Shown here: one piece after another, positions 22,943 through 59,608 of the stretch
How the letters are laid out: the number at the start of each line of letters is the position of its first letter
Position numbering within the stretch: position 1 is the stretch's first letter
Origin: Candidatus Krumholzibacteriia bacterium
GTDB lineage: Bacteria > Krumholzibacteriota > Krumholzibacteriia > JAJRXK01
DNA length: 64,000 bases
Direction of reading: 5' to 3'
Assembly (NCBI GenBank): GCA_041484665.1
Contig: JBGPIA010000001.1
Coordinates: 416,001 to 480,000, forward strand
Notes under the pieces: model-generated
Seen by the model: the letters and a program-made list of their open reading frames with translations, nothing else
Database searches by the model: none
What the model was told of the DNA's origin: nothing
Program-made: the position numbers and the translations under genes

Positions 22943-23722
22943 TCAGGCGGGCGCTCCAGCGCCGTCAGCCCCCGGTGCGAATCGCTCCGCCAGGCGGAAG
23001 AAGTTCCCGAACACCGTTCGCGCCAGCGCGCTGCTGTCCACCGCCTCGCGCAGCAGGGCCTGTGGATCGAGCTTCAGCTCGGGATGACGCTGCGCGCGGG
23101 AGTGGCAGAGCTCGCTGGTGTCCTGCGCCGGCAGCTCGGCATGGAATTGCACGCCCCACACGGGCTGGCCCGGCACGCGCAACGACTGCACGGCGCACTG
23201 CTGCGACCGCGCGAGCACGGTCAATCCCGCACCGCGCACCGCGCCGTCGACCACCTCATCCTCGTGCGACAGGAACGTCGTGAAGCGCGGCCCGGCCCCG
23301 GCCAGCAACGGATCGTCGTGCAGCACCTCGATCTGCTTCCACCCGATCTCGGGCTGGCGCGCCTTGCGTACGGCGGCCGGGCCGGCCAGCGCGTACGCGA
23401 TCGCCTGGTGCCCGAAGCACACGCCAAACATCGGCACACGTGCCGTAGCCGCCGCGCGGATCGCTGCCAGCACGCGCTCCACCCACGGGATGCCGGCAAG
23501 TACCGACGCCGCCGAGCCCGTGAGCACCAGCCCCGCGTAGCGGTCGACGCCCGCCGGCAGCCCACCGGGCAGCCGGTCGTGCGCGGCGCGGACGACCTCC
23601 GCGCGGCGTCCCTGGAACAATGGCAGGAATGCCGGAGCGGCGCCCGCTTCATCCACGTAGCAGTCCACCAGCAGGTATGGCTTGTCCGTCCCGGGCGCCC
23701 TTGCGCCCGGCGCTCCGCTCAC
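22943..23722 (-). CDS. Stand-alone type 1 glutamine amidotransferase (GMP-synthase-like GATase domain)
   Basis: Motifs LTGS, GVCFGHQ (Cys), EIGW, SHEDEV and GVQFHAE (His-x-Glu). The GTG start overlaps the HtrA stop. Confidence 0.88.
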   Translation of the reverse strand: MSGAPGARAPGTDKPYLLVDCYVDEAGAAPAFLPLFQGRRAEVVRAAHDRLPGGLPAGVDRYAGLVLTGSAASVLAGIPWVERVLAAIRAAATARVPMFGVCFGHQAIAYALAGPAAVRKARQPEIGWKQIEVLHDDPLLAGAGPRFTTFLSHEDEVVDGAVRGAGLTVLARSQQCAVQSLRVPGQPVWGVQFHAELPAQDTSELCHSRAQRHPELKLDPQALLREAVDSSALARTVFGNFFRLAERFAPGADGAGAPA

Positions 23723-24786
23723 GCCTCCACTGGCACGCACTCGAGCTCCATCAACTCCCCATGGCGCAGGATCGACAGGCGTACCGGCTGTGGCGGCCCG
23801 TCATTGCGTAGCAGCCCGGTCAGGATGCGATGGATCCCGTCGACGTCGGCCACGTTCCGGCCGTCCAGGGCGTAGATCAGGTCCCCGCCGCGGATCCCGG
23901 CGCGCTGGGCGGGCCCGTCCGCCTCGACCGCCATCACCTGCACCGCGGCCGCCGCATCGAGCTCGAGATGCCGCTGGATGCGGCGGTTGATCGGACGGCT
24001 CTGGGCGCTGATCCCCAGGTAGGCGCGGCGTACCTTGCCGCGGGTCACGAGCTCACTGACCACCCAACGCGCCGTGTTCACCGGGATCGCGAACGAGATC
24101 CCCTGCGCCATGAAGATCATTGCCGTATTGATCCCGACCACGCGCCCGCGGCTGTCCACGAGCGGCCCGCCGGAGTTGCCGGGGTTGAGCGCCACGTCGG
24201 TCTGGATCACGTTGTCGATGAGGCGCCCGGACGTGCTGCGCAGGCCACGGCCCAAGGCGGAGATGACGCCGGTGGACACGGTGCTCTGGAATCCCAGCGG
24301 GTTGCCAATGGCGATCACCAGCTGCCCCACGCGCAGCTGGCCGGAGTCACCCAGCGTGGCGCTGGGGAGGCTGGCCTCATTGGCGCGGACGATCGCCAGA
24401 TCGCTGGCCGGGTCGCTGCCCACCACCTGCGCGCCGCAGACGCGCCCGTCGGTGAGGCTCACCTCCACGGACTGCGCGCCGTCGACCACGTGGTGATTGG
24501 TCAGGACGAATCCATCGGGGGCGATGATCACGCCCGAGCCAGCGCCCCCGCCTTCGCCGCTACGGCCCTGCCCCGGGCTGCGCCGGCGCACTGCGATGCC
24601 CACCACCGCTGGGCCGACCGCTTCGACGACGCGCACCACGGCGCGCGAATAGGCGTCCAGCAGCTCGTCGTCGGTGTCCGCGTGCAAGCGGTGCAGGGGC
24701 TTCGGTTGGGGTGCGGGCTGGGGGCGGGCAGGCGAGGCCGGCCCGGATGGCTCGCCGCCTTGCAGTGCGGTCGCACGATCGCGCAT
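23719..24786 (-). CDS. HtrA/DegP-like trypsin serine protease with one PDZ domain, no signal peptide
   Basis: Motifs GSGVII, LTNHHVV, DLA, AIGNPLG and QTDVALNPGNSGGPL, then a C-terminal PDZ. AGGAGG precedes ATG 24786. Confidence 0.93.
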   Translation of the reverse strand: MRDRATALQGGEPSGPASPARPQPAPQPKPLHRLHADTDDELLDAYSRAVVRVVEAVGPAVVGIAVRRRSPGQGRSGEGGGAGSGVIIAPDGFVLTNHHVVDGAQSVEVSLTDGRVCGAQVVGSDPASDLAIVRANEASLPSATLGDSGQLRVGQLVIAIGNPLGFQSTVSTGVISALGRGLRSTSGRLIDNVIQTDVALNPGNSGGPLVDSRGRVVGINTAMIFMAQGISFAIPVNTARWVVSELVTRGKVRRAYLGISAQSRPINRRIQRHLELDAAAAVQVMAVEADGPAQRAGIRGGDLIYALDGRNVADVDGIHRILTGLLRNDGPPQPVRLSILRHGELMELECVPVEA

Positions 24787-24866
24787 GGCTGTCCTCCTGG
24801 CAGGGGGGTCGGGTCCCCGGGCTCGGAGCACAAGCTAATGCGGGCGGCGCGCTCCGCCCGGCGCCG

Positions 24867-25949
24867 TCAGCGCATGCCCGCAAACTGGAGGTGCGTCTCG
24901 AGGGCCCGCAGCCGGTTGTAGAAGACGTCGACGTCGCGCCCCCGTGCCACCTTCGCCTCCGCTTCGAGCCCGCGCAGCGCCTCGGCCGCACGGCGGCCGG
25001 CCTGGCCGTGGTGCTCGAAGAAGCGCTCGCGGTAGTGTGCGCGCTGCTGGGCGAACCGCTCGGGGTGCGCCAGCGCGCCCTCCACGGCGGCGCACAGCTC
25101 CTGCGGTTGCACCACGCGCGGCGCAAAGTCGCGGTAGAGGCGCTCCACGTCCTCCGTCGCGTCAAGGTCCGGATTGTCGAGCAGGACGACGGGCCGGTCG
25201 ATGGCGCAGGCCTCGAAGGCCACGCCGCTGTAGTCCGTGACGACGGCGTCGGCCGCCACCACGGTGGCGATGGAGGCATCCGCTTCGTCGATCCAGCGGA
25301 AGCGCAGCGGGAGCGTCGTGAAGCGCTCGCGCTCGGCGACATACGACACGGGGTGCAGCTGCAGCAGCAGGTCGATACTTCCCGACAGCCCGGCGAAGGC
25401 CGCAGCGACGCGCTCGACGGCGCAGTCGCTCCCAAAGGTCGGAGCGTAGAGCACGACGGTCCGGTCGGGGGGGATTCCCAGCTGGGTGCGGGCCCGCGCC
25501 CGCGTCAGGACGCCGTTGAATACGTCGTCGAGCTTGGGATACCCGACCACCTCCGTGCGCACGCCGTGGCGCGCCAGCAGGTCACGCCCGAAGCGCGAGG
25601 CCACCAGTACGCAGTCGTACTCGGCGTTCTTGGCCGAGTACGTGTACTGCTTGCTGATCACCGCGTACTGCATCCGCACGAGACGGCAGTACCGCGCCGA
25701 TACCGGCCGCGGCTTGATGATCGGCAGCGTGGCCAGCAGATGGGGCTCCAGGATGAGCTCGCCGTGGGCGGCCTTGATCCCCCGCGCCTGCAGCCAGCCT
25801 AGGGTGCGGCGCACCCCCGCAGCGCCCTCCCCACGCTCGGCGCGCGTCCAGAACGGTACGACGTGCACCTGGGCGTCCTGCAAGTGCCGCAACACGGGCT
25901 CCCAGTTGTGGTAATCCCACGGCTCACTGACGTAGAAAGTCATGGACAT
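24867..25949 (-). CDS. CDP-glycerol:glycerophosphotransferase (TagB/TagF) family protein
   Basis: Motifs VGYPKLD, VLYAPTF, QLHP, ADAVVTDYSGVAFE and RPVVLL. Confidence 0.85.
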   Translation of the reverse strand: MSMTFYVSEPWDYHNWEPVLRHLQDAQVHVVPFWTRAERGEGAAGVRRTLGWLQARGIKAAHGELILEPHLLATLPIIKPRPVSARYCRLVRMQYAVISKQYTYSAKNAEYDCVLVASRFGRDLLARHGVRTEVVGYPKLDDVFNGVLTRARARTQLGIPPDRTVVLYAPTFGSDCAVERVAAAFAGLSGSIDLLLQLHPVSYVAERERFTTLPLRFRWIDEADASIATVVAADAVVTDYSGVAFEACAIDRPVVLLDNPDLDATEDVERLYRDFAPRVVQPQELCAAVEGALAHPERFAQQRAHYRERFFEHHGQAGRRAAEALRGLEAEAKVARGRDVDVFYNRLRALETHLQFAGMR

Positions 25950-26734
25950 GGAGCGGACTCCTCGGCGGGCCTGGGTTCAATCCCCGCCGCCCGGACGCGG
26001 GGGAGCCGCGCCACGGCCAGGTGCTTGAGCACGGGATGGATGACCGTGAACGTCCGCCCCGCGCCTTGATCCTGCGCGGCGGGCGCGTGGCCGCCGGCCG
26101 CGCCAAGCTGCTGCAGCGCCTCCACCAGCACGACCGCGCGGATCCACGCATCGTAGACGAAGTCGAGATCGCGGGGGTCGATCCCGCACGGCGCCGCAAA
26201 CCTGCGCCTGACCAGGATCGGCCCACTGTCCAGCTGTGGCTGCATGAAGAACGCCGTCGCCCCCAGCGCCCCCGTGAGCAGCAAGCTGTAGAAGATGCAG
26301 GTGCTACCCCGCAATTGGGGCAGCGGCCCGGGGTGGACGTGAAGCCAGCGCCGCGCCGCGGCGAGCGCCTCCGCGCGCAAGACACCGCCCCCGCTGAACA
26401 CGGCGACGTCGGCGCGGCGGCGCGCCACGGCCGTGACGACCGCAGGGTCGTTCACATCGGCCGCTGCGATCTCCGAGCTGGCCAGCCCCGCGCGTGCCAG
26501 CGTCGCGCGCAACGAGAGCGCGGGATCGAACGCGTCCGCCGGCGCGCGCCCCCAGCGCGGATCCGTCACGTCTGCCGCCTGCCGACCCAGCAGCAGCACG
26601 TGGTCGGGCGCCACGCCCGCTGCCAGCATCATCTGGAGGTAGCCGCGCGCCCGCAGTCCTGGATACGCCACCAGGAGCACCCGGTCGCCAGGGCCGTGCT
26701 TTGCGCCCTCGCGCTGCTGCCGCGCGCCGGTCAT
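25940..26734 (-). CDS. Formyltransferase-fold protein (Formyl_trans_N only)
   Basis: Motifs DVND, FSGGG, LHVHPGPLPQLRGS and LDSGPIL. No Fmt C-terminal domain. ATGA coupling to the upstream gene. Confidence 0.78.
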   Translation of the reverse strand: MTGARQQREGAKHGPGDRVLLVAYPGLRARGYLQMMLAAGVAPDHVLLLGRQAADVTDPRWGRAPADAFDPALSLRATLARAGLASSEIAAADVNDPAVVTAVARRRADVAVFSGGGVLRAEALAAARRWLHVHPGPLPQLRGSTCIFYSLLLTGALGATAFFMQPQLDSGPILVRRRFAAPCGIDPRDLDFVYDAWIRAVVLVEALQQLGAAGGHAPAAQDQGAGRTFTVIHPVLKHLAVARLPRVRAAGIEPRPAEESAPCP

Positions 26735-27489
26735 ACGTTCTCCTCGCGCGGCCACGCAGCAACGGCGTCGATCAGCGTGCGCTCGAGAACCAGGCCTGCC
26801 TGCCCGGCGAGCGCGTCGAGGGGTGCGAGCTCCCAGAGCCCCGCCTCCACCCGCGCGCCAATGAGGTCGACCAGCTGGAGCAGCGCGTTGGCGGCCACCA
26901 GCGCGGCGGGGCGGTCGTGCTGCACGCAGGAGTGGCCGCGCCAGCCGGCGGCCAGCGCGAGCCAGGCGTAGACGGCAGGGGCGTCGCTGCGGTCCCCGAC
27001 CCGCCGCAGCTGCGCGTCGTAGCGGTCGAAAACGCGGCGACGGACCTCGAATCTGCGCAACAGCCGCTCGACCATGGTGACCGTCCAGATGACGTGCGCT
27101 CCCCCACCGGCCAGGCTCCTCCCGCGTGGCAAGCAGGCCGTTAGGATGTCCTGCAGCAGCGTGACGGTGACTGCCGAGCCGTCTGCGGCGAGCGCGCCGT
27201 CCCAGGCTGCCCGCGCGCGCGCCAGGTCGTGCTCGAGGGCGGGCTCGGGCCCGTCCGCCGCCGGGCGCGCCTGGTTGGAGGTCAAGGGCTGCAGCGTCGC
27301 GCGCCAAGCATTGGGGATGTGCGCGGCAGTGCTCGCCGCCGCGGACACGGACGCGCGCAGGCGCGCCTCGAGCGCGCGGCGTGCCCGCAGCCAGCGCGCC
27401 AGGAAGCTGCCGTCCTCCACCGGCGCGTAGCTGTAGGGCGAGGGCTGTCGCAGCCCGGCCGCGGTCTGGTAGACGTACTCAGAGGGCAC
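26731..27489 (-). CDS. Hypothetical protein (252 aa, predicted helical) in the phosphoramidate operon
   Basis: Overlaps both neighbours (11 nt and 4 nt). GAGG SD. Segments YSYAPVEDGSFLARW and LLRRFEVRRRVFDRYD. Confidence 0.75.
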   Translation of the reverse strand: MPSEYVYQTAAGLRQPSPYSYAPVEDGSFLARWLRARRALEARLRASVSAAASTAAHIPNAWRATLQPLTSNQARPAADGPEPALEHDLARARAAWDGALAADGSAVTVTLLQDILTACLPRGRSLAGGGAHVIWTVTMVERLLRRFEVRRRVFDRYDAQLRRVGDRSDAPAVYAWLALAAGWRGHSCVQHDRPAALVAANALLQLVDLIGARVEAGLWELAPLDALAGQAGLVLERTLIDAVAAWPREENV

Positions 27490-30400
27490 GGACCACCTCG
27501 GCGCCGCAATCGAGCTCGATGCCGCGCGCCCGCACCAGGCGCGCGTAGTGCGCCTCGCCGCAGCCGATGGCTGCGGGCAGGCCCAGCTCCGCGCAACGCA
27601 CGGTCATGTGGGAGTTGGCGCCGCCGTAGCACGTCACCAGTCCCGCGATGCCGCGACCGAAGATCCAGTCGTAGCCCGGGTCCGCGCCTTCGATCACTGC
27701 GATCTTGCCGCGCAAGTCTAGGCCCGGGTCACCACCATGGGGATCGAGCGCGACGGCCGCGGCCTGCACGCGCTCCCCGGTGACGAAGTTGGGCCGGCCC
27801 GCGGGCAGCACAACGACCTCCAGGTCGTCCTCGCCTGTGATCAGCGGCGGCAGCAGGACACGCGAGGTCACCGCACGGTGCAGCCGCGCGTCCGCGATAC
27901 GCCGGGCAAGGTGGTCGGCGCCGTGCGCCGGCGCAGAGCGCTGCGCCACAGCGAGAATGTCGTCCACCTCCAGCAGTGCGACGTCCTCGCGCGAGAAGCC
28001 CAGCCGCTCGCCCCATTGGGCGATCAGCTCCAGCGCCCAGCTCAGGTTGCGCGTGAACGCGAACTTGGCGTGCTCGCGCGCACCGAGACTCGCCCGCGCG
28101 AAGTCCAGGAGCTCTGTGGCGGGTACGTCCAGCTCCAGCTCGGCGAGCACGCGGTCGATCTCCGCCAGCGTGCGCGCGGGCAGGGCCAGCGCGTCTTGGC
28201 CCAAGCGCGCGGCCGAGCTCGCCCGCCCGTCGGCGGCGCCGCCCGCGTGGGCGGTCGGCGCATCGCCGGGTGATGCGGAGGCGGGCGACCCATCACCCTG
28301 CGACGGCACCTCCAGCCCCGGAAAGTAGGTGTCGAACGCCTGGTCGTAACGCGGCGATAGGATGTCATAGGAGCCCGGACGCAGGTGGCCGTAGCGCGCC
28401 AGGAACGCCCCCCGCTCGACCCGGCCCGCGCGCAGCGCGTCCAGATCGTCCAGCAATTGCGCGCTTACCGTGTGGATACCCCCCAGATACAGGTCGAGCT
28501 GCTGCGCTGGGAGCGCCCCGCGGTCGCGCAGCGAGCGCAGCAGCGCCGTGGCGATGAACGCGTAGCGGGCGAGCGCCGCGAACGGGATCGTCCCGTCGCG
28601 CACGGTGGATTCCAGCAGCGTGGCCAGCGCCATGGGGTGATCCAGCGGGTCGCGGGCGTGTCGCAGCAGATCGTCGCAGCGGGGGGCGAGTCGCTCGACG
28701 GCCGCCAGCAGCGCGGCCACGCGCTCGCGCCACGAGTGCAGGAGATCCGCGGTGAGCGTACGCAGCGCCGCGCGCAGCGGCGCTACGTCGGACTCGAGCA
28801 GGCCGTGCTCCCGCAACCGGACCGCCGACGCCCCGTAGCCCGCGTCCAGGCAGGTCGGGAACACCTCGAACTCGATCTTGTCGTGCAACTGCGGGCGAGC
28901 GCGCAGCAGCGCGAGTCCCGCGTCGATCACCCGCGTGCCGCACGCGGGGTCGAGGCCGGCCGGCAGCAGCGTGTTCGCGCTGCAGCGCACGTCGACGTAC
29001 GGGCGATCGGCCAGTGTGACCATCAGGCGGTGCCCGACGGCGTCGCGGTAGCCCAGCGCCGTGCGCGCGACGCGCCACGCCCGGTCGGTGATGAGCGCCT
29101 CGTAGAGCGACCGGGCCAGGGGCGCGGGGAACGCCCCGATCACCTCGGCCGGGTTCCAGTCGGGCATCTGTCCGAACACCGTGCTGCCGCCCAGCAGGCC
29201 CGGCCTCGGCCGCATGCGGCGACGCACCAGATCGCGCACGGCCGCGAGCTCGGCGCCGTGCGCCTGGCGGTCCACGGGCGCCCAGCGGGCGCTGGCAGCG
29301 ATGGGACGTACCTGCAGCACGTGCAGCGTGCCGTCGGCGGTGAAGGCGAATTCCACGTCCAGGGCGTCGGAGCCGGTGATCGACTCCAGCTCGCCCGCCG
29401 CGCGCAGCAGACAACCCACGCGCGCGTCTACGCGGGGGCGCACTGCGCCACGGTAGACGAGCACGGTGCGCGTCACGGCCGCTACGCCGGAAGTAACGGC
29501 GTCGGTGCGACCGCTGCCCTCGTCGTAGTGCACAACCGTGTAGTCGGCGCCGGTGTCCAGGTCGCGCGTCATCATGACGCCGCCCATCACGACATCCTGC
29601 AGGCATGGTTGCACGAGGATCTGGTCGGCTTCGCCGCCACCGTCGCGATCCAAGCTGGCCACCACCGTCTCCACCGCGTCGCGGATCGCGTCCGCATCGT
29701 CGGCCGCCACACCCAGGACGGTGCGATAGTGACCGGCGTGGCTGGCCTGGGCAGCGTCCTCGCGCAGCGCGCTGCTGCGTACGGCCAGTGCCCCCTCGCC
29801 GAAGCGCTCCGTCAGCGCGCGGGTGACTCCCGCCGGATCCGCCTGCCATTGGCCGACGCGCACGACCATCCCATCGCCGACGCGCGCCTCCTGCAGCAGC
29901 GGGCGCAGCCGTTGCAACGTCTCGCCCTTGGTGCCGAACACGAAGCGCGCCAGGTCGCCCGGCGCGTCCACCTCGGCCCAGTCCCCACCGATCTCCACCA
30001 GGTCGATGCGGCTGCCCTGCTCGATCAGCTCCTGCAGCAGGTCGCTGAGGCAGGCGTTGTCGAGATTGCTGGCTTTGCGGTAGGGCCGGTCGCGGTACAC
30101 CGAGCGCAACGCGTCATAGGCGCTGCGCACCGCCGCCGCCCCGTCGGCGCTCAAGCGCGCCAGCCCGATGAACTCGCCGGTGATCTCGCCGTCGACGGGG
30201 AGGTCCTTGCCGATGCGCGCCACGCGCCCGCCGCGCACGAGCACCTTCTCCGCATTGCGCAGGCGGTCTTGCCCGCGGCGCTCATTGCGGCGGCGCCAGG
30301 TGGTGTCCACGGCCAGCACGATATCGCCCGCAGCCGCCCGCAGCGCGGCGGCGACCGCCGGCCGGTAGACGATGTCGCCGTAGGACAGGATCAAAGGCCC

Positions 30401-30679
30401 GTCGAGCTCCTGCTTTGCGCAGAAGAGCGAGCCGAGCACGTGCTGCTGCGCCCAGCGCGGATTCTCGACGATGCGCAGCGTTGGGTAGGCCTGGCGGATG
30501 CGCTCGATGGCGTCGCCGCCGACCAGCACGAAGTCGGTCACGCCCGCGCCCTCGCGCAGCGCGTTGAGCACCCAATCCAGAGCGCGCCAGCCGGCCAGCC
30601 CCTCGAGCAGGCACTTCGGAGTGGCCCCACCCGGTTCCAGGTCTACGCCGCGGCCCGCGCCCAGCACGATCGCTTTCAA
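27479..30679 (-). CDS. Fusion of a LicC-type cytidylyltransferase and a PEP-utilizer-family L-glutamine kinase (Cj1416-like + Cj1418-like)
   Basis: N-terminal AIVLGAGRG..PKCL..SYGDIV..WAEVDAPGDL. Then GTKGETL, ATP-grasp AVRSSALRED...AGHY, QP, TSG, LDVEFA, LQVRPI, central MPDWNPAEVIG and YGHLRPGSYDI, and phospho-His domain ADPGYDWIF..GGANSHMTVRCAELGLPAAIGCGE. Start is TTG 30679 (TTGA overlap) or ATG 30697. Confidence 0.88.
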   Translation of the reverse strand: MKAIVLGAGRGVDLEPGGATPKCLLEGLAGWRALDWVLNALREGAGVTDFVLVGGDAIERIRQAYPTLRIVENPRWAQQHVLGSLFCAKQELDGPLILSYGDIVYRPAVAAALRAAAGDIVLAVDTTWRRRNERRGQDRLRNAEKVLVRGGRVARIGKDLPVDGEITGEFIGLARLSADGAAAVRSAYDALRSVYRDRPYRKASNLDNACLSDLLQELIEQGSRIDLVEIGGDWAEVDAPGDLARFVFGTKGETLQRLRPLLQEARVGDGMVVRVGQWQADPAGVTRALTERFGEGALAVRSSALREDAAQASHAGHYRTVLGVAADDADAIRDAVETVVASLDRDGGGEADQILVQPCLQDVVMGGVMMTRDLDTGADYTVVHYDEGSGRTDAVTSGVAAVTRTVLVYRGAVRPRVDARVGCLLRAAGELESITGSDALDVEFAFTADGTLHVLQVRPIAASARWAPVDRQAHGAELAAVRDLVRRRMRPRPGLLGGSTVFGQMPDWNPAEVIGAFPAPLARSLYEALITDRAWRVARTALGYRDAVGHRLMVTLADRPYVDVRCSANTLLPAGLDPACGTRVIDAGLALLRARPQLHDKIEFEVFPTCLDAGYGASAVRLREHGLLESDVAPLRAALRTLTADLLHSWRERVAALLAAVERLAPRCDDLLRHARDPLDHPMALATLLESTVRDGTIPFAALARYAFIATALLRSLRDRGALPAQQLDLYLGGIHTVSAQLLDDLDALRAGRVERGAFLARYGHLRPGSYDILSPRYDQAFDTYFPGLEVPSQGDGSPASASPGDAPTAHAGGAADGRASSAARLGQDALALPARTLAEIDRVLAELELDVPATELLDFARASLGAREHAKFAFTRNLSWALELIAQWGERLGFSREDVALLEVDDILAVAQRSAPAHGADHLARRIADARLHRAVTSRVLLPPLITGEDDLEVVVLPAGRPNFVTGERVQAAAVALDPHGGDPGLDLRGKIAVIEGADPGYDWIFGRGIAGLVTCYGGANSHMTVRCAELGLPAAIGCGEAHYARLVRARGIELDCGAEVVRAL

Positions 30680-31578
30680 CGCGGTACCCCGCCGCATCCG
30701 CGACCGTGGGCCGACCTCGTGGGAGGAGTCGCCCCAGGCCCCGTATCAGGGACCGTGCCCGGCGCCAAGGCGGACGTCGGGACCGGCCAGCCCCGCCCAC
30801 CAACCAGACCCTCGGCCACCAGCGCCTCGGCAACCTGCAGGTCGGCGCGGGTGTCGATCTCGGTGCAGCCACCGTCAATGGGAATCGACTGCACGCACTC
30901 GCCGCGTCGGATCAGGCCCATGAGTAGGTCGGTGATGTGCGCCGCCGCGAGGGGGCGTTCACTGCCGAAGGCACGCGGAGCCGGATGGGTGCCGAGCGCG
31001 GCCGCGGCGGCCTCCAGCAGCGCCCGGCGCACGATCTCGCTGCCGGAGCCCGACAGCCGCACCATCCCGACATACTGGCCTTGGATCTCCGCGAGCGAGC
31101 GCGGGCGCCCGCCGATCTCCACGATCCGCCCGCCCTCCCCCAGCCGCAGCGTCTCGGCGTCGGCCAGCGGGTCCGCCATGCGCCGCTGCCACAGCGCGCG
31201 CCACTGCCGGTCGATCACCACGCCAATCTCCGCGCGCGAGGTCAGCGCCTCGTGCACGACCGCGGGCCCGAAGAGCAGATCGGTGTAGGTGATGAGGACA
31301 TCGCCGCGCAGCTCGCTCTGCGCGCAGAGCAGGCTGGCGACCATGCTCGTAGAGGACCAGCGCGGATTGTCGAGAGTCCGGACGTGGGGATCCTGCAACA
31401 GCGCGCGCTTGTAGCCGCGCACCATGACGATGTCGCCAACGCCGCACGCACGCAGCGCGTCGAGCTGCCACGACAACAGCGGCTGCCCGGCGACCTCCAC
31501 CAGGCACTTGGGCCGATCGGCGGTGAGCGGCATGAGCCGCGCGCCGCGCCCGGCCGCCAGCAAGATGGCTCGCACCAC
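30676..31578 (-). CDS. Phosphocholine cytidylyltransferase (LicC/Cj1416) family NTP transferase
   Basis: Motifs AILLAAGRGARL..PKCL, SMVASL, YTDL, GQYVGM and EIDTRADL. Confidence 0.9.
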   Translation of the reverse strand: MVRAILLAAGRGARLMPLTADRPKCLVEVAGQPLLSWQLDALRACGVGDIVMVRGYKRALLQDPHVRTLDNPRWSSTSMVASLLCAQSELRGDVLITYTDLLFGPAVVHEALTSRAEIGVVIDRQWRALWQRRMADPLADAETLRLGEGGRIVEIGGRPRSLAEIQGQYVGMVRLSGSGSEIVRRALLEAAAAALGTHPAPRAFGSERPLAAAHITDLLMGLIRRGECVQSIPIDGGCTEIDTRADLQVAEALVAEGLVGGRGWPVPTSALAPGTVPDTGPGATPPTRSAHGRGCGGVPR

Positions 31579-31938: not shown

Positions 31939-32982
31939 GTGAGCCTTCCCACCATCGTCGTCCGCGTGCGCGCCGGCGTACTGCTGCTGTGGGCCGCCTC
32001 GGCTTGCACCGGTTGCACCGCGCTACCGGCCGGGCCCGCGCCACCGTCGCGCGCGCCGCTGCGGGGCGTGACGCTGGTCGACTGGACCGCGGAGGGCTAT
32101 GCGAGCCCGGACGCGGCGGCTTCGATCGATGCGCTGGCCGCCACGGGCGCCAGTACGATGGTGCTCGTGGTCACTGCCTACCAGGCATCCGCAGCCAGCG
32201 CCACAGTCCGCGCCGATGACCCGCGCACCCCATCCTCCGCCGCGGTCGCGACGGCGCTGGCCCGCGCGCGGGGGCTGGGCCTGTCGATCATGCTCAAAGT
32301 CCACGTCGACCTCGACGACGGGAGCTGGCGCGGCACGATCACGCCCAGCGATGCCGCAGCTTGGTTCGCCTCGTACCGCGCGTTCCTGAGTCCGTGGGCG
32401 CAGCTCGCCGCCCAGCAGGGAGTGGCATGGCTGGTGGTCGGCACCGAGCTCGCCGGTACGCTTGCGCATGCCGCGCAGTGGCGTCAGACCATTGTCGCCG
32501 CGCGTGCGGCGTTCCCGGGCGCGCTCACCTACGCAGCCTCGTGGGACGAGGCCGCGCTCGTGCCATTCTGGAGGGACCTCGACGCCGTGGGCGTCGACGC
32601 CTACTTTCCGCTCGCCGCGCGCGGTGCTCCGTCGCGGCTGGAGATCCTGGGCAACTGGCAGCCCTGGCTCGCTCGACTGCTGCTGCTGTACCGCCAGACC
32701 GGGCGCCCGGTCCTGCTGACGGAGATCGGGTATCGCAGCGTCGACGGGGCCGCCCAGGCGCCATTCGCCACCGCCGGCAACGCTCCCGCCGACCTTCAGG
32801 AGCAGGCCGACCTGTACTGGGCGGCGCTGGCCGCCACCTCCGATCTCGACGGGCTGGAGGGCCTCTGTTGGTGGGACTGGCCGGCGCGCGCGGACCCCGC
32901 GGCGTCGGCCCGGGACTACACGCCGCGCGGCAAGCCCGCCGAGAACGAGCTGCGCGCCGCGTGGAGACCGGTTACGCCGTGA
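31939..32982 (+). CDS. Glycoside hydrolase, GH113-like TIM barrel, probable lipoprotein
   Basis: Motifs MLKVHV, WRG, VGTEL, TYAASWDE, GVDAYFPL, LLTEIGY and YTPRGKPAE. Hydrophobic N-terminus with Cys. Confidence 0.82.
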   Translation: MSLPTIVVRVRAGVLLLWAASACTGCTALPAGPAPPSRAPLRGVTLVDWTAEGYASPDAAASIDALAATGASTMVLVVTAYQASAASATVRADDPRTPSSAAVATALARARGLGLSIMLKVHVDLDDGSWRGTITPSDAAAWFASYRAFLSPWAQLAAQQGVAWLVVGTELAGTLAHAAQWRQTIVAARAAFPGALTYAASWDEAALVPFWRDLDAVGVDAYFPLAARGAPSRLEILGNWQPWLARLLLLYRQTGRPVLLTEIGYRSVDGAAQAPFATAGNAPADLQEQADLYWAALAATSDLDGLEGLCWWDWPARADPAASARDYTPRGKPAENELRAAWRPVTP

Positions 32983-33632
32983 GCGTCGCCCCGCGGCAAG
33001 GGCAGAGGCTTCGCCTGCGCGCTGCGGCGTGCGCGGTGGGCGTGCTGCTGCATGCTGGGCCCCTTCCCGGCGTCGCGGCGGCAGCGGTCGGCGCCCCCAC
33101 GGCGGCGCGCGCGCCCGGTCTCGCCGCGTCGGCGCCCGCAGGCGCGCGGCGGGTCTTAAGCAGCAGCGCCGTCCCGGTCCTGTTGCGCCCGGGCGCCATC
33201 GAGCTGGGGCTGGCCGGCGCGGTCACTTCTGCCGCGGGGATCACCCGCACGCGGACCGCGCTGGGGGTGGGGACGTTCCGCGCAGCCGGTGCCGGCCTGG
33301 CCAGTGCGGAGCTGGAGCTGGGGTACGCGCACCTGCTCGCGCAGGACGTGTTCGACGCCGGCGCGTCGATCGCCTGGACGTGGCCCATCGGCAACCCGCC
33401 TCTCTATCCGTACGTCGCCGCGGGCGGCGGACTGCGCCAGGAGTGGCTGGGCAGCTTCAGCGCGGCGCGCTATCCGGTGGGCGCGGCGATGGGCTTGCGC
33501 GTCCTGGCCGGCCCGCGCGCCGACGTGCGCGTGGAGTATCGCTATCGCCGCGTACTGCACGATCCGGCCGCGGACTACGACGAGCACGAGCTGTGGTTCG
33601 GGATCGGGCTCCTTCTGCACAACGCTCGCTGA
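32979..33632 (+). CDS. Small outer-membrane beta-barrel protein
   Basis: Signal peptide and amphipathic strands (LYPYVAAGGG, VRVEYRY, LWFGIGLLL). GTGA coupling to the hydrolase gene. Confidence 0.7.
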   Translation: MSVAPRQGQRLRLRAAACAVGVLLHAGPLPGVAAAAVGAPTAARAPGLAASAPAGARRVLSSSAVPVLLRPGAIELGLAGAVTSAAGITRTRTALGVGTFRAAGAGLASAELELGYAHLLAQDVFDAGASIAWTWPIGNPPLYPYVAAGGGLRQEWLGSFSAARYPVGAAMGLRVLAGPRADVRVEYRYRRVLHDPAADYDEHELWFGIGLLLHNAR

Positions 33633-33654: not shown

Positions 33655-34770
33655 TCAGACGCCGGACCGCGCCGCCAGCACCTGCGCGTAGACCGCCGCG
33701 GTGGCCGCAGCCATGCGCTCGGAGCGGTACACCTGCGCGCGCGCCACGCGCTGCAGGGCGCTGGCGCGGGCAGCGGGCAGCGCCTGCAGCAGGGTCGCGA
33801 TGCGCTGCGCCCACGCCGGCGCGTCGCCGGCCGGCGCCAGGCAGTCCGGGAGCAGCCCCAGCTCTCGGCAGGCCGGCAGATCGCTGCACAGGAGAGGAAC
33901 CCCCAGCAGCATGGCTTCCTTGGGCACGGCGGGGGATCCTTCGCCGCTGATGGATGGGAACAGCAGCAGATCGATCGCGCCCAGTAGATCCGGGACGTCC
34001 TCGCGCGGCCCCAGCCAGCGGATCTGCTCTGCGATGCCCTCGCGCCGCGCCAGCGAGTCCAGGGCCGCGCGCAGTGGCCCTTCTCCCGCGATCAGCCACG
34101 AGGGGCGGGCCCCCTCGCGGCGCAGCGCGCCGAGCGCGCGCACCAAGACCGCGTGCCCCTTGTGCGCCACGAGCTGCCCGACGCTCAGCAGCACCGCTTC
34201 GTCGTCGCGCAGCCCCAACGCGGCGCGGACCTCCCCCCGCGGGCGCGACGCGGCGGCGCGCGCGGCGTCGATGGCGCTGGGCACCACGAAGATGCGCCAC
34301 GGAGCGATTCCGTCCCGCACGAGCTGCTCGCGCACGCTGTGCGCCACGGCAATCCAGGCGTCCGGCCAGCGCCGCTTGCGCCGTGCCAGCAGGTTGCGCG
34401 CGAGCGGGAAGTCCACGCGGCGGTGTGCCAAGAGCGGCGGGCGCTGCCCACGCCCTGCGCGCGGCGCCAACAGCCGCGCCAGGTGCCCGAGCGTGACCGC
34501 ATGGGCGGTGTGGGCGTGGACGAGGGCGATGTCGCTGCCGCGCAGCAGCCGCGCGAGCGCCGGCAGCGCGGCCGGTGAGATCTCGCCCTGCAACGGCAGC
34601 TCCACGACCGACACGCCCGCGACGCCGCGCAGCCGTGCGGCGAGCGGTGCGCCGCACGGCACGGCCACCGTGGCGGGATGCCCCGCGCGCGCAAGGTCGC
34701 GCGTCAGCAGCGCGACCTGCCGCTGCCCGCCGCGATCCTCTCGTCCGGTGTCCAAGTGCAGCACGTGCAT
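33655..34770 (-). CDS. Glycosyltransferase family 4 (GT-B)
   Basis: Motifs RGGQRQ, VHAHTAHA, HRRVDF, HKGH, AGEGPLR and EGSPAVPKEAM. Confidence 0.9.
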   Translation of the reverse strand: MHVLHLDTGREDRGGQRQVALLTRDLARAGHPATVAVPCGAPLAARLRGVAGVSVVELPLQGEISPAALPALARLLRGSDIALVHAHTAHAVTLGHLARLLAPRAGRGQRPPLLAHRRVDFPLARNLLARRKRRWPDAWIAVAHSVREQLVRDGIAPWRIFVVPSAIDAARAAASRPRGEVRAALGLRDDEAVLLSVGQLVAHKGHAVLVRALGALRREGARPSWLIAGEGPLRAALDSLARREGIAEQIRWLGPREDVPDLLGAIDLLLFPSISGEGSPAVPKEAMLLGVPLLCSDLPACRELGLLPDCLAPAGDAPAWAQRIATLLQALPAARASALQRVARAQVYRSERMAAATAAVYAQVLAARSGV

Positions 34771-35944: not shown

Positions 35945-38056
35945 TTGAACGGCACCGCTCCACCGCCGCGCAGGGCGCGGGCGCGCCTGGCGCTCGCAGT
36001 CGCTCTGGCCGGCCTGGGTCCGCTGCTGCTCGGGCTGGTCGTGTTCCGGCAGGGCATTCAGCTGCGCGACGACGGGCTCTGGTTGCTGGGCGCCCAGCTG
36101 CTCGGTCAGGGCGGTGTGCTCTATCGCGACCTGTTCGTCGCCGACGGCCCAGCGCGCTACGTGATGTTGGGGCCATTCCTCGCCGCCGCCGGGGGCAGCG
36201 CTCTGGGGCTCGTGTGGCTGAAGAGCGTCTGCAGCGCAGCGGCAGCGGCAGCGGGCTTCTGGGCGGCGCAGCGCACGGGCGCGGGCGCGCGCGCGTGGCT
36301 GGTGCCGCTGGGCGTCGTTGCGTTGGGGCCCCCACCGCCGTGGATCGTCACGCTGGGCGTGCTGGCGGTGCTCTTTGGCCATGCGCTCGACTGTGCGCGC
36401 GATCGGTGGCTCCCCCCGCGCTCGGCGCTGCTGTGGGGCTGCGCGTTCGGCACGCTGGGCTGGTTCGGCGCCGGCGCCGGGGTGGCGGGGGCGTTCGTGC
36501 TGCTGGCGAGCGCAGCCATCGCGCGCGCGGGCATCCTGCGGTCGCGCGCTCTCGCGGCGCGGCTGGCCGTGGGGCTGCTCGCGGTCGTCGCGCTTCCGCT
36601 GGCGCTGGCGGCGCTCTCGGGTGCGCTCGATACCGCGCTCTGGGACACGGTGGTGCACCCGCTGCGACAGTGGCAGCAGCAGATGGCGCACGGCGGCCTG
36701 CTCGCGTGGCTGCGCACGCTGCGCTCTGGCGCATGGCTCGACCTCCCCTTCGCCGAGCTCGCGACGGGCGAGCGGCTGGGCGCCGCCTGGCCCGCCCACG
36801 CTGCCCTGCGCTCGCTGGCCTTGCGGCTGCTGCTGCTGGCGATCTGGGTGGTGCCGCCGCTGGCGTTGAGTCTGCGGCGCCGCGGCGCGCAGGCCGGGAT
36901 CGAGGCGGGGTTGTGCGCATTCGCGCTGGCCGGATGGGGCGTGCTGGTACCCGCCGGCGGCCTCAATCACCTGCGCGCCGGCTGGCTGGGCTCGCTGTGG
37001 GTGCTCCCGGCCGTGCTGGCGCCGTCACGCCTGCCACCGCGCGCGCAGCCCGTGGGGCGCGCCGCAGCGTGGGTGCTCGCGCTGGGCGCGCTCGGTCCGC
37101 TAGCCGCCGAGCCGCTCTGGCTCGGGCTGCACGCGCGGCGCGCAACGCTGCAGACGTGGGAGCGCCCGCGGGCGGGCGTCCAGCTCTCCCCGGCGCGGGC
37201 GGAGGGCCTCGACGGCGTGCTCGCCGACATCGTCGCGCGGACGGGCGGCAACAACGGCACGCCCGCCGCGCCCGTGCTCATCTGGCCCGCGCAACCGGGG
37301 CTGCAGTTCCTGCTGGACGCGCCGCTGGCCACCGCGCAGGCGACCGTCGGGCCCGGAGAGGTGCGCGACCCAGCCAGCGTGATCGCCTCGTTGGACGCCT
37401 CGGCCCCGCCGGTCGCGCTGCTGAGTCCGGTGTTGAGCCACTCGCGCGACCAGCTGCGGGCTGACGCCCCGCAGCTGTGGAGTTATCTGCGTCGCAACTA
37501 CTCCCTGGTCGGGAACGTCGTCGACCGCCCCGACGAGTTCCGCGTGCTCGCGCGCGTGCCGGGCGGGCTGAAGGAGATGCTCGCCCTGCCGCTGCCGGCG
37601 CGGCTGCCCGACCTGGAGCAAGCGGTGGGAAATGACGCGAGCCCTGCCTTGGTCAAGGACGCCACCGTGGGGCAGAGCTTTCCCGTCGGCGACCTCGACC
37701 TGGCGGGGATCGCCGTACGCTGGCGCACGCGGCGGCCGGACGTGCACGCGCGCGTGCGCGTCGCGGTCTGGCTGCAGCGTGGCGGGAAGTTCGACACGCT
37801 GCTGGACTTCTTCGACGTCGACGTCACGATCGCGCGCGATCTCGACCGCAGCTTCCTGCGCTTCGGGCCGATCACCGGCACGGCCAACGGTACCGTCGCC
37901 GTGACCTTCGAGCTGCGCGACACCACGCCGCAGGAGATCCGTCTGCTGTGGCACCGCCATGACGCGACGCAGCACGTGGCCGACTTCCTCCCTGACGGAT
38001 CGGCGCTGGTGAACATGCAGCCGGTGGCGGCCGACCTCTACTTCTTCTCGTACTGA
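35945..38056 (+). CDS. Polytopic membrane protein, GT-C-like, with a C-terminal beta-rich extracytoplasmic domain
   Basis: After TM1, RDDG...GGVLYRDLF..GP. Multiple TM segments and a soluble C-terminus. Confidence 0.65.
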   Translation: MNGTAPPPRRARARLALAVALAGLGPLLLGLVVFRQGIQLRDDGLWLLGAQLLGQGGVLYRDLFVADGPARYVMLGPFLAAAGGSALGLVWLKSVCSAAAAAAGFWAAQRTGAGARAWLVPLGVVALGPPPPWIVTLGVLAVLFGHALDCARDRWLPPRSALLWGCAFGTLGWFGAGAGVAGAFVLLASAAIARAGILRSRALAARLAVGLLAVVALPLALAALSGALDTALWDTVVHPLRQWQQQMAHGGLLAWLRTLRSGAWLDLPFAELATGERLGAAWPAHAALRSLALRLLLLAIWVVPPLALSLRRRGAQAGIEAGLCAFALAGWGVLVPAGGLNHLRAGWLGSLWVLPAVLAPSRLPPRAQPVGRAAAWVLALGALGPLAAEPLWLGLHARRATLQTWERPRAGVQLSPARAEGLDGVLADIVARTGGNNGTPAAPVLIWPAQPGLQFLLDAPLATAQATVGPGEVRDPASVIASLDASAPPVALLSPVLSHSRDQLRADAPQLWSYLRRNYSLVGNVVDRPDEFRVLARVPGGLKEMLALPLPARLPDLEQAVGNDASPALVKDATVGQSFPVGDLDLAGIAVRWRTRRPDVHARVRVAVWLQRGGKFDTLLDFFDVDVTIARDLDRSFLRFGPITGTANGTVAVTFELRDTTPQEIRLLWHRHDATQHVADFLPDGSALVNMQPVAADLYFFSY

Positions 38057-56506: not shown

Positions 56507-59500
56507 ATGGCACGTCGAGCTTTCTTCATTCTCCCGCTGCTGATCCTCGCGGCGGCCGGCTCCGCCCCGGGAGCGACCATCGACCCCGAGCTGCTGCAAA
56601 CGCTGAGCGCCAAGGGCCCCGGGGCCCAGGCTCCCGCGCTCATGCTGTTCGATGCCCCGGTCGATCTCGGGGCGCTGGACGCGTCGCTGCAGGGTGTGCC
56701 CTGGCGGGAGCGCCAGCTGCGCGTGATCGAGGTGCTGCAGGCCCACGCGGCCGCCACCCAGGCGGAGGCCATGGCGATCCTGCGCCAAGCTGAGAGCGCG
56801 GGACGCGTCTCGCAGTTGCGCTCGCTGTGGACCGTCAACGGCATCGCGTTCCGCGCCACGGCCGACGCAATCCAGAGCGTCGCACAAGCGAAAGCTCCGG
56901 CGGACATCGTCTACGACAAGCGCTATGACATGATCAGCGCGGTGACGGCGGCGCACCCGACGCCAGCGCAGGCGGCAGACCGCTCAGCGCCGGGCGCGCG
57001 CGTCCAGCCCCTGGTGCCAGTCACGGCGTGGAGCATCTCGTGGATCAGGGCGGATCAGGTCTGGCCGCTGGGCTACACCGGCGCGGGGGTGCTCGTCGCC
57101 GGAATGGACACCGGCGTCTGGCTGACGCATCCCGACATCGCAGGCCAGATCTTCACCAACCCGGGCGAGATTCCCGGCGACGGCATCGACAACGACAGCA
57201 ACGGCTACATCGATGACGTGCACGGCTACGACTTCGGCGATCGTGACTCCGACCCCAACGACGATGTGACCGGCGGGGGCTCCAACCACGGGACCCACAC
57301 CGCGGGCACCGTAGCGGGGAACGGGACCAACGGCACCTCCACCGGTGTCGCGCCGGGCTGCCGCTTCCTGCCGTGCAAGGTGTTCCCCAGCGCGGGCGGC
57401 GGCGCGGCGCTCAGCGACATCTGGGAAGCCCATGGCTACGCCATCCGGATGGGCGCGCGCGTCTTCACCGAGTCGCTCGGCGTGACCGGGATCCTGCCGC
57501 CCTCCCTGATGCGCAGCGCGCGCGTGGATGCCGACGCGATCCGCGTGGCGGGCGTGGCCTACTTCAATTCGGCGGGTAACGACGGTGGGACGTCGAACCT
57601 CCCGCCCGACCAGTTGGGCCTCACCGCCCGCGTCCCGTCAGCGTGGAACGCCAACGCGGCCGTGCCCTGGAGCTCGCGCGGCGGCGTGAACGCGGTCGGC
57701 GGCACCGGCTACAAGAGCGATGCGGCGTATGCGGGCTCGTCGATGGGCCCGTCGAGCTGGGCGCTGGTCGCCCCGTGGAACGACTGGCCGCTGCCGGACG
57801 GGCTCACCAAGCCCGATGTCTGCGCCCCGGGCGTGCTGGTCAACTCGCTGCAGAAGCCGAACGGGTACTCCGGCGACAGCTGGACCGGCACCTCGATGTC
57901 GTGCCCGCACACCGCCGGCACGGCCGCGCTCATGTTGCAGAAGAACCCAGCGCTTACCCCAGTGGACATCGATCGCATCCTGGAGCAGACCTGCGTGGAC
58001 CTGGGGGTCGCGGGCAAGGACAACCAGTTCGGCGCTGGGCGCATCGACGCGCTGGCCGCGGTCAACGCCGTGCCTGCGGCGCAGCTGCCCTACGTCGTAC
58101 AGACCGCGCTGGGCTTCCACGAGCCCGGCGGGAACGGCTACATCGACCCGGGCGAGACCATCGACGTGATCATCCAGCTCACCAACAACAGCGCGGTGAT
58201 CAACGCGACCGCGGTGACCGGAGCGTTGTCCGTGGCCGCGAACCCCTACGTGACGGTCATCGACGGCGCGAGCGGCTATCCCAACCTCGCGGCCGGCGGC
58301 GGCTCCGCCGACAACTCCGCCGACGTTTTCACCGTGAGCGTCGCCCCCGGCACGCCACAGGGCTTTCTGATGACGCTGCTGCTCACCATCACGACGGCAG
58401 AGGGCTACACCGTCACCATCGACAGCCAGCTACAGGTCGGCCTGACTGACTTCCTGACGCACGACGTCGGGGCCGTGTACGGCACGGTGACCGATTCGGG
58501 GATCCTCGGGTATACCGACAGCGACCACGGCTTCGGCGAGGGCTTCGGCCCCACCGGCGAGGCCAGTGCGCTGTACGTGGGCTCGTTGTGGGGCGGACAG
58601 AACGCCGGCTACGTTTGCAATCACGATTACCCCGGTACGGGCGTGACGCTCGAGACCGCCGAGTGGCGGACCGTGACCAACCCCAACGGACGCGTGCTGA
58701 AAGTCACGCCGCCCAGGTCCAACCAGGACTTCCGGTCGCTGTTCGACGACAGCGGTGCTCTCACGCCCAAGAGCCTCCAGATCACCCAGGAGAGCTACGC
58801 GTTCAGCACTCCGGGCTACGACAAGTTCATCATCCTCACGTACCGGGTGAAGAACCTGGCTGCGACCACGCTCACGACCTATCACGCGGGAGTGTTCTGC
58901 GACTGGGACATCGCCGATGGCAACAACCTGGGCGGTGTGGACACCGCCCGGCGCATGACCTACATGAACGCGGGGCCCGGCGTGGCGGATGGGCCATTCT
59001 ACGGGATCCAGCTCATCTTCCCCGCGGCCTACCGCAACCTCGCCCTGATCAACAACGCCACGTTCGTGTACCCCGACGGCCGCATCAACGATACCAACAA
59101 GGCGCGCCTCCTGCGCGGGCTGATCACCAACACGGTCGCGTCGAGCCTGATCGACTGGTCGGCGCTGACTTCGACGGGGCCCTACGATATACCGGCGGGC
59201 GCCGAGCTGGAGTTCACCTTCGCGCTCGTGTATGGAACGACGCTCGCCGACCTGCTGGCCAACGCCGACGCGGCGCAGAACCGCTACGCGTGGCTGCAGG
59301 CGGCCGACGCGAGCGAGCGGCCGCAGCCGCTGCCGGCCGCGCTGTTCCAGAACGCGCCCAACCCGTTCAACCCGGCCACTACGATCCGCTTCGCGGTGCA
59401 GCGGGAGGGCCCGGTGAGTCTGGCCGTCTACGACCTGGCGGGACGCAAGGTGCGGATCCTGGAGGAGCGGACGTTCACGGCCGGCCAGTGGTCGGTGCGC

Positions 59501-59608
59501 TGGGACGGGACCAACGACCGCGGCGAGCCGATGCCGTCGGGGATGTACTTCTACCGGCTCGAGGCGGACGGCAAGCGCCTCGCCCGCAAGATGATGATGG
59601 TCAAATAG
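56507..59608 (+). CDS. S8 (subtilisin-like) serine peptidase with a C-terminal FlgD-Ig/T9SS-like sorting domain
   Basis: Triad motifs MDTG, HGTHTAG and GTSMSCPH; propeptide; GIDNDSNGYIDDVHGYDF insert. C-terminus QNAPNPFNPATTIRF...YDLAGRKVR...WDG...SGMYFYRL. Confidence 0.93.
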   Translation: MARRAFFILPLLILAAAGSAPGATIDPELLQTLSAKGPGAQAPALMLFDAPVDLGALDASLQGVPWRERQLRVIEVLQAHAAATQAEAMAILRQAESAGRVSQLRSLWTVNGIAFRATADAIQSVAQAKAPADIVYDKRYDMISAVTAAHPTPAQAADRSAPGARVQPLVPVTAWSISWIRADQVWPLGYTGAGVLVAGMDTGVWLTHPDIAGQIFTNPGEIPGDGIDNDSNGYIDDVHGYDFGDRDSDPNDDVTGGGSNHGTHTAGTVAGNGTNGTSTGVAPGCRFLPCKVFPSAGGGAALSDIWEAHGYAIRMGARVFTESLGVTGILPPSLMRSARVDADAIRVAGVAYFNSAGNDGGTSNLPPDQLGLTARVPSAWNANAAVPWSSRGGVNAVGGTGYKSDAAYAGSSMGPSSWALVAPWNDWPLPDGLTKPDVCAPGVLVNSLQKPNGYSGDSWTGTSMSCPHTAGTAALMLQKNPALTPVDIDRILEQTCVDLGVAGKDNQFGAGRIDALAAVNAVPAAQLPYVVQTALGFHEPGGNGYIDPGETIDVIIQLTNNSAVINATAVTGALSVAANPYVTVIDGASGYPNLAAGGGSADNSADVFTVSVAPGTPQGFLMTLLLTITTAEGYTVTIDSQLQVGLTDFLTHDVGAVYGTVTDSGILGYTDSDHGFGEGFGPTGEASALYVGSLWGGQNAGYVCNHDYPGTGVTLETAEWRTVTNPNGRVLKVTPPRSNQDFRSLFDDSGALTPKSLQITQESYAFSTPGYDKFIILTYRVKNLAATTLTTYHAGVFCDWDIADGNNLGGVDTARRMTYMNAGPGVADGPFYGIQLIFPAAYRNLALINNATFVYPDGRINDTNKARLLRGLITNTVASSLIDWSALTSTGPYDIPAGAELEFTFALVYGTTLADLLANADAAQNRYAWLQAADASERPQPLPAALFQNAPNPFNPATTIRFAVQREGPVSLAVYDLAGRKVRILEERTFTAGQWSVRWDGTNDRGEPMPSGMYFYRLEADGKRLARKMMMVK

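Follow-up and report, generated by a model that had tools for sequence, protein, structure and literature searches.

The DNA considered here, a stretch of 64,000 nucleotides (nt) termed the window (contig JBGPIA010000001.1, positions 416,001 to 480,000, forward strand, of assembly GCA_041484665.1), comes from a Candidatus Krumholzibacteriia bacterium and carries a minus-strand operon of five open reading frames (ORFs), running from 31578 down to 24867. Its gene families point to a surface-modification pathway based on a phosphorus-nitrogen (P-N) bond, resembling the first steps of O-methyl phosphoramidate (MeOPN) synthesis in Campylobacter jejuni. A likely sixth pathway gene lies on another contig, C4, of the window genome (G000, 93.65% complete).

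30676..31578, minus strand: stand-alone LicC-like cytidylyltransferase, 300 amino acids (aa), GTG start; likely has the role of Cj1416, in which glutamine phosphate (Gln-P) and cytidine triphosphate (CTP) yield cytidine diphosphate-glutamine (CDP-Gln)
27479..30679, minus strand: fusion of a nucleoside triphosphate (NTP) transferase and a kinase, 1066 aa, TTG start; likely L-glutamine amide kinase
26731..27489, minus strand: CUNK, an all-helical protein of no known family, 252 aa; predicted partner subunit of FMT
25940..26734, minus strand: FMT, a formyltransferase-fold protein, 264 aa; predicted N-formyltransferase
24867..25949, minus strand: TagF/TarL-like CDP-donor phosphotransferase, 360 aa; predicted to move the phosphoramidate onto a hydroxyl group of a glycan
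G000:C4, about 196679-197440 (L013:9680-10438), plus strand, outside the window: likely orthologue of the Cj1417-type hydrolase, 253 aa

Successive genes overlap by 4 nt between cytidylyltransferase and kinase (TTGA), 11 nt between kinase and CUNK (GTGCCCTCTGA), 4 nt between CUNK and FMT (ATGA) and 10 nt between FMT and the TagF-like gene (ATGTCCATGA), and the GC content at third codon positions (GC3) of the operon, 0.88-0.91, is similar to that of adjoining genes. A preliminary description of this DNA had proposed five overlapping minus-strand genes encoding a kinase with Cj1418-family motifs, two cytidylyltransferases, an unknown protein, a formyltransferase-fold protein and a terminal TagF-type transferase. 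Coordinates and overlaps were confirmed on re-reading, the unknown protein and its formyltransferase-fold neighbor are both present, and the kinase motifs, the formyltransferase fold and the transferase are borne out by the scores given below. The count of cytidylyltransferase genes needs amending: there is one stand-alone gene, the second being an N-terminal domain on the kinase.

With 776 bits against a cut-off of 501, the 1066-aa protein matches NF004508/PRK05849, presumed to be the Cj1418 family. On models of phosphoenolpyruvate (PEP) synthase and rifamycin phosphotransferase, the two groups that the preliminary description had named as possible confounders, it scores at most 47 and at most 36 bits, and its identification as a PEP synthase or rifampicin phosphotransferase was rejected. 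H1024, in the GGANSHM motif, aligns with the mobile-domain His of PEP synthase (phospho-His domain). This is the only full copy of the kinase in the window genome. Of 568 matches the best 80 were used, and the closest named ones (48-51%) carry the label Ca. Krumholzibacteriota. Those 80 matches supplied the 78 kinase loci surveyed here, in which neighborhood calls can miss genes; one of five "FMT-free" genomes carried FMT just past the examined flank. Residues from about 1 to 243 of the fusion form the second NTP-transferase domain, which is complete in this family, lacks the usual GxGxRL Arg and is degenerate in other lineages. The stand-alone cytidylyltransferase matches PF12804 (63 bits), has the CTP:phosphocholine cytidylyltransferase 1jyk as its best PDB match (E 1e-12), shares 52-56% with orthologues in the family and belongs to the same family as the NTP transferases adjoining 57 of the 78 kinases.

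The kinase, or the fused NTP-transferase domain, might instead use another substrate, such that the donor would not be, or not only be, a CDP-phosphoramidate. Retention of two NTP-transferase domains in this lineage would fit such a substrate, and the link from NF004508 to Cj1418 is a presumed one. Room for it is also left by TalE of phosphoramidon biosynthesis (PMC6482885), a PEP-synthase-like P-N kinase of a related type that acts on a dipeptide amine together with an ATP-grasp ligase and a rhamnosyltransferase. However, TalE is less than 20% like Cj1418 and its partners have no counterpart here, the kinase exceeds the NF004508 cut-off, and its phylogenetic profile agrees perfectly with that of the gamma-glutamyl-CDP-amidate hydrolase type, leaving a different substrate very unlikely.

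In C. jejuni the route opens with a kinase, a cytidylyltransferase and a C26 hydrolase, one for each of its first three steps (PMC6429109, PMC10971088, PMC3907429 and the Borg preprint). The preliminary description was right that the operon itself contains no Cj1417, Cj1415 or methyltransferase gene, and suggested that glutamine may be retained and N-formylated instead. A C26 search of the window genome, however, gave one strong match, on contig C4, whose best NCBIfam match is the gamma-glutamyl-CDP-amidate hydrolase NF045546 (75.5 bits) and in which the catalytic triad (C125/H218/E220) is intact. The protein shares 42-44% identity with the hydrolases encoded inside the operons of G002, G003 and G005, the three among nine other genomes of the family in which the kinase is present. 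All three have the gene order NTP transferase, fused kinase, C26 hydrolase, CUNK, FMT, TagF-like gene. In G002 a zincin gene and then metG come after the whole operon, and in the window genome the same two genes come after the lone C4 hydrolase, which implies that the hydrolase most likely stayed behind when the remaining operon moved. A class I glutamine amidotransferase in the window (22943-23740) was considered as a stand-in for Cj1417 and rejected: its best match is PRK09065, it lacks the family motifs, it reaches 26.5 bits on the local profile and it does not occur in the relatives' loci.

The kinase and the Cj1417-type hydrolase are found in the same five of 208 genomes of the phylum, four of which also carry FMT. 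All 62 kinase-linked C26 sequences, the C4 protein included, have the C4 gene as their best match in the window genome; the local-profile score of that gene was set aside as circular, the C4 protein being among the 62. Nine CUNK loci have no local hydrolase, and each of the five genomes checked has one elsewhere (101-114 bits). Comparison of 21 hydrolases of FMT-bearing loci with 31 of FMT-free loci yielded no diagnostic alignment column, and the hydrolase substrate therefore looks unchanged. Judged from sequence, the C4 gene is likely the orthologue of the Cj1417-type hydrolase and the sixth gene of the pathway. Because an intact hydrolase of this type tracks the kinase, glutamine is most likely removed as in Campylobacter.

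These findings bear directly on the earlier model, wherein glutamine stays in place, formylation of its alpha-amine occurs at the Gln-P or CDP-Gln stage (perhaps protecting it from the hydrolase) and the group transferred is N-formyl-glutaminyl-phosphate. A Cj1417 gene elsewhere in the genome, as now seen on C4, is among the observations that the preliminary description itself had listed as counting against that model. It draws on the absence of a hydrolase from the operon, on the Met-tRNA formyltransferases, the closest folds, which act on an alpha-amine, and on the amino-acid CDP donors reported for Clostridioides difficile (bioRxiv 10.64898/2026.02.12.704994). Against it stand the intact orthologue in the genome, the in-operon copies of all three relatives, a hydrolase in 22 of 24 long FMT loci and the copies elsewhere in five of five genomes. 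Retention of glutamine was rejected on the basis of the C4 hydrolase, the relatives' copies and this co-occurrence, and the model as a whole is scarcely probable. The evidence does support a P-N pathway of the Cj1418 family that includes a formyltransferase-fold protein along with a transferase of TagF-like type; it does not support N-formyl-glutaminyl-phosphate as the product.

The survey of Cj1418-homologue neighborhoods, suggested in the preliminary description, shows that the gene set recurs. Both CUNK and FMT are present at 32 of the 78 kinase loci, and a single member at two (one CUNK-only at a contig end, one FMT-only at the thresholds used); among 33 CUNK loci the flanks contain a hydrolase in 24 and an adenosine phosphosulfate (APS)-type kinase in 27. 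In a second survey, covering 80 of 527 metagenome FMT loci, CUNK lies directly upstream of FMT in 63/63 loci with at least 700 bp of room, and the trio of kinase, hydrolase and cytidylyltransferase is present in 22 of the 24 long loci, the APS-type kinase in only three. The family loci were sampled by both surveys, and kinship among loci is common, so the counts are not independent. A FastTree tree of the kinases was built from 77 rows, leaving out two duplicates and any row with fewer than 600 aligned residues; on it, over 64 rows, at least 11 changes of state are needed for the pair. Four of five long CUNK matches scanned are fusions, with FMT, an NTP transferase or an APS-type kinase as the other part, and in G002 CUNK is joined to FMT.

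Formylation might also follow transfer, CUNK-FMT acting on the phosphoramidate once it is on the glycan, or be directed at an amino sugar of that glycan; in either case the TagF-like enzyme would move a plain phosphoramidate. Sugar N-formyltransferases are among the close folds of FMT, plain phosphoramidates are reported from Xanthomonas and Shewanella lipopolysaccharide (PMC3907429), and the loci sit in glycan islands, homologous loci elsewhere being flanked by glycan genes that include aminotransferases (58 of 162 candidate ORFs scanned). Yet the donor trio remains beside the pair from locus to locus as transferases and glycan genes vary, and its fusions join CUNK to donor enzymes, the NTP transferase and the APS-type kinase; this reading is judged unlikely.

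CUNK has no Pfam, NCBIfam, PDB-sequence or ESM Atlas match and no Foldseek match at E 0.001. Its model (predicted local distance difference test, pLDDT, 89) is all-helical and weakly resembles part of an (alpha/alpha)6 barrel (Z 10.7, root-mean-square deviation 4.0, 201 aligned, 8% identity), a likeness in a range common for helical proteins. FMT matches PF00551 (27.6 bits) and, by Foldseek, Fmt (E 2e-12, template modeling score about 0.6), with ArnA and WbkC among the close folds, and its G-x-x-L folate loop matches that of formyltransferases. H132, H134, G136, G143, D169, R199, H233 and P234 occur in 116 of 117 family matches (the other has a gap), and R28, Y32, N95, S144, T145, D191, D195 and K237 in 112-115. 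H134 and D169 correspond to the catalytic His and Asp named for PurN (PMC3261824) and HypX (PMC6802093), and H132, likewise His in 116/117, stands at the position of an Asn in Fmt and sugar formyltransferases.

CUNK and FMT are predicted by modeling to bind as a heterodimer. The complex scores 0.88, the best of three controls 0.00; runs agree on at least 94% of contacts, and partner pLDDT is at least 81. Of 157 solved pairs 116 attained the mark used, as did 2 of 215 mismatched ones, counts that apply only approximately to the alignments made for this analysis. In the predicted interface the invariant C-terminal HPxLKH helix of FMT (229-243) packs against the conserved 193-205 helix, E148, Y7 and Y19 of CUNK; no solved complex resembling the pair was found.

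The last gene of the operon matches PF04464 (70.5 bits, threshold 22.1), TagF 3l7j (E 0.0015) and TarL (E 0.008), and reaches 26.5 bits on the NCBIfam TarF model, against 550. GYPK-x-D, YAPT and TDYS motifs are present, the HP of the C-domain is kept, and H199-P200 is invariant in 12/12 aligned homologues. Genes of this type are associated with the absence of the 3'-kinase. For 52 genome loci the sequence extends 4.5 kb or more to either side, and among these TagF-like genes are found at 7/13 loci without the 3'-kinase and 4/39 with it (Fisher p 0.003, uncorrected for kinship), and at 6/6 FMT loci without it. Of the 24 long metagenome loci, 21 lack the 3'-kinase, 20 of these having sulfatase-fold genes and the other a TagF-like gene; the three with the kinase have neither. 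Where the 3'-kinase is lacking, TagF- or sulfatase-fold genes thus tend to be present, and a donor without a 3'-phosphate would fit this pattern. Sulfotransferase-fold genes as partners of the 3'-kinase found no support in the same 52 loci (7/39 versus 1/13, p 0.66). Like the hydrolases, the cytidylyltransferases and kinases of FMT-bearing and FMT-free loci have no distinguishing column, which suggests that the pair does its work once glutamate has been released, or independently of that step.

A 3'-kinase and kinase-linked methyltransferases were sought in the window genome and not found. No APS-kinase-family 3'-kinase (Cj1415 type) was detected in this 93.65% complete genome, which has no PF01583 match and a best local-profile score of 17.8 bits, nor any orthologue of the kinase-linked methyltransferase families MT10 and MT19, for which the best scores are 47 and 70 bits against 340-440 for members. 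MT19 is presumably the Cj1419/Cj1420 family; no Campylobacter protein is named among the best 120 of 3100 matches in its search. MT19 and the CUNK-FMT pair occur together at 0/13 loci, and FMT is absent from all five whole genomes carrying MT19. A rule that formyl replaces methyl was nevertheless rejected, as the exclusion fails correction for the tree and MT10 co-occurs with the pair. One locus from another genome of the same bacterial class (L173, G174:C19:4444-9462) has a Campylobacter-like set of APS-type kinase, MT19, kinase, hydrolase and cytidylyltransferase, in a genome without FMT.

The pair is widespread. CUNK forms 2191 clusters at 50% identity, and the cultured type strain Christiangramia gaetbulicola DSM 23082 (L020) has the same minimal gene set (kinase, hydrolase, cytidylyltransferase, CUNK, FMT and TagF-like gene), with no 3'-kinase inside 8 kb, its TagF-like gene being recovered with an HHalign probability of 98.7. 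On AT-rich marine contigs (L099, L115, L130, L135, L137, L138, L146, L147, L155 and others) the trio and CUNK-FMT are accompanied by between one and three sulfatase-fold genes. These contigs are likely Nitrosopumilus-like; Ca. Nitrosopumilus sp. SW supplies the one named homologue, which is 62% like the marine copies. The sulfatase fold may be an unrecognized CDP-donor transferase. Some marine loci adjoin phosphonate genes (PEP mutase and decarboxylase). Variants elsewhere include an FMT fused to a methyltransferase (L083:13385-15253), a 565-aa CUNK-FMT fusion with extra sequence (L076:12423-14117) and a second formyltransferase-like gene (L047:14080-14964). Among 31 candidates from viral contigs there was no FMT relative.

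The reading favored here, at somewhat less than an even chance, is that CUNK-FMT N-formylates CDP-phosphoramidate, and that the TagF-like enzyme then transfers it to a glycan. The kinase, of the family identified above, would phosphorylate the amide N of L-glutamine via H1024, and the stand-alone cytidylyltransferase, perhaps aided by the fused domain, would convert the product to CDP-Gln. The C4 hydrolase, an orthologue with its triad in place, would free glutamate, leaving CMP-P-O-P-NH2 (CMP, cytidine monophosphate). In the weakest step the heterodimer, its genes coupled and its binding predicted, would move a formyl group from 10-formyltetrahydrofolate (10-formyl-THF) to the NH2; the window genome has FolD. 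Finally, the TagF-like enzyme would release CMP, leaving sugar-O-PO2-NH-CHO. Neither 3'-phosphorylation nor O-methylation would be needed in such a route. The likely formyl acceptor is the phosphoramidate N after glutamate release, rather than the glutamine amine, and the invariant R28, R199, S144, T145 and K237 of FMT would suit a phosphate-bearing acceptor.

A number of observations weigh against this route. The presumed likeness to Cj1416-Cj1418 is drawn from family models and neighborhoods. The 75.5 bits of the C4 hydrolase fall far under the curated NF045546 cut-off of 250, as do the scores of the non-Campylobacter-like homologues tested (71-114 bits; two kinase-linked ones 104-111), and 2/24 long FMT loci have no trio within the contig. 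Once the kinase tree is taken into account, mutual exclusion of the pair and MT19 lacks significance (median p 0.25), and MT10 methyltransferases share 14/33 loci with the pair, so doubly modified products are possible. The N-domain His motif of TagF reads Q-Y-A here (Q/L-Y-A across homologues). A phosphoramidate N is a weak nucleophile. Moreover, the nearest solved folds (Fmt, ArnA) formylate alkyl amines, for which reason formylation of a retained glutamine or of an amino sugar keeps some small probability. With His replacing the usual Asn, the site may also do other chemistry, and a His-x-His/Asp set can bind metal.

These last points lead to a further alternative, in which the donor route is the same and CUNK-FMT is folate-independent, H132, H134 and D169 binding a metal for some other P-N change or for hydrolysis or proofreading of the donor. 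The invariant His, a dedicated partner of no known family and the co-occurring MT10 genes speak for it, whereas the fold, the G-x-x-L folate loop and the retained HypX/PurN His/Asp core are those of formyltransferases. It is regarded as a rather doubtful alternative.

The pathway has likenesses to several known systems. With C. jejuni MeOPN (Cj1415-Cj1422) it shares the kinase and C26 hydrolase families and probably that of the cytidylyltransferase; it differs in the displaced hydrolase, the 3'-kinase and MT10/MT19 genes not found, the extra NTP-transferase domain, CUNK-FMT, and a TagF-like transferase in place of Cj1421/Cj1422. By its genes the pathway is like the first three steps of MeOPN synthesis, and is not a member of the full pathway because no 3'-kinase was found. 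FtaC/FtaD of C. difficile offer a precedent by analogy, in which a CDP donor is tailored before a TagF-like transferase acts. In that system (bioRxiv 10.64898/2026.02.12.704994), FtaABCD of flagellin Type A phosphorylates, cytidylylates and N-tailors a small molecule on the CDP donor and moves it to a sugar by a TagF-like phosphotransferase, but with a P-O threonine ester and S-adenosylmethionine methylation, in place of the P-N bond, glutamate release and folate-fold enzyme here. The 10-formyl-THF formyltransferases (Fmt, ArnA, WbkC, VioF, PurN and the HypX N-domain) share the fold and the catalytic His and Asp with FMT, which, unlike them, carries a His in place of the Asn that lies two positions ahead of the catalytic His, lacks the usual C-terminal domain, and is predicted to dock a separate helical protein through its HPxLKH helix. 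With TagF/TarL the transferase shares the PF04464 GT-B region and motifs; here it is a single 360-aa domain of weak likeness (E 0.0015) with an altered N-domain motif, in an operon without CDP-glycerol genes.

More broadly, it is tentatively proposed that the pair is a new two-subunit P-N formyltransferase making CDP-N-formylphosphoramidate, and that N-formyl phosphoramidate is an unrecognized surface decoration in many bacterial phyla and in abundant marine Nitrosopumilus-like archaea, where transferases of TagF or sulfatase fold would take over from the 3'-kinase/transferase module of Campylobacter. To our knowledge, few organisms are known to bear natural phosphoramidate groups on their glycans, and Campylobacter is the sole source of known enzymes. 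The searchable literature, from which subscription journals are mostly absent, holds no description of a formyltransferase or N-formyl group in a phosphoramidate or MeOPN context, and none linking phosphoramidate to Nitrosopumilus. If true, the proposal would entail a new reaction, acylation of a phosphoramidate N, and a new glycan substituent, possibly a common marine organic P-N pool and likely relevant to phage recognition. The predicted two-protein CUNK-FMT enzyme is undescribed and widespread across many phyla, its FMT member being labelled "methionyl-tRNA formyltransferase" in databases. New here are the displaced hydrolase, the predicted heterodimer, the exchange of transferase and 3'-kinase, and a cultured model in C. 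gaetbulicola.

The operon's own neighbors are not conserved among the relatives, and a promoter scan found nothing. On the same strand, 35 nt past the operon, lie an HtrA protease and the PRK09065-like amidotransferase (window 22943-24831), a pair not seen beside the operon in relatives. On the other side (window about 31940-33632, plus; 33655-34641, minus; 35945-38056, plus) are genes for a GH113-like hydrolase and a GT4 glycosyltransferase, together with what is likely a small outer-membrane barrel and a membrane protein of 703 aa that has no Pfam match. These are possible envelope genes; the GH113, barrel and GT4 genes were rejected as an acceptor pathway, as they are not kept in the three family loci. 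About 24 kb past the window, L172 (G000:C1:502070-505440) contains an O-antigen-ligase-like gene and a very distant TagF-like ORF, and is a candidate acceptor locus. Within the window, a subtilase with a C-terminal FlgD-Ig/secretion sorting domain is encoded at 56507-59608 on the plus strand.

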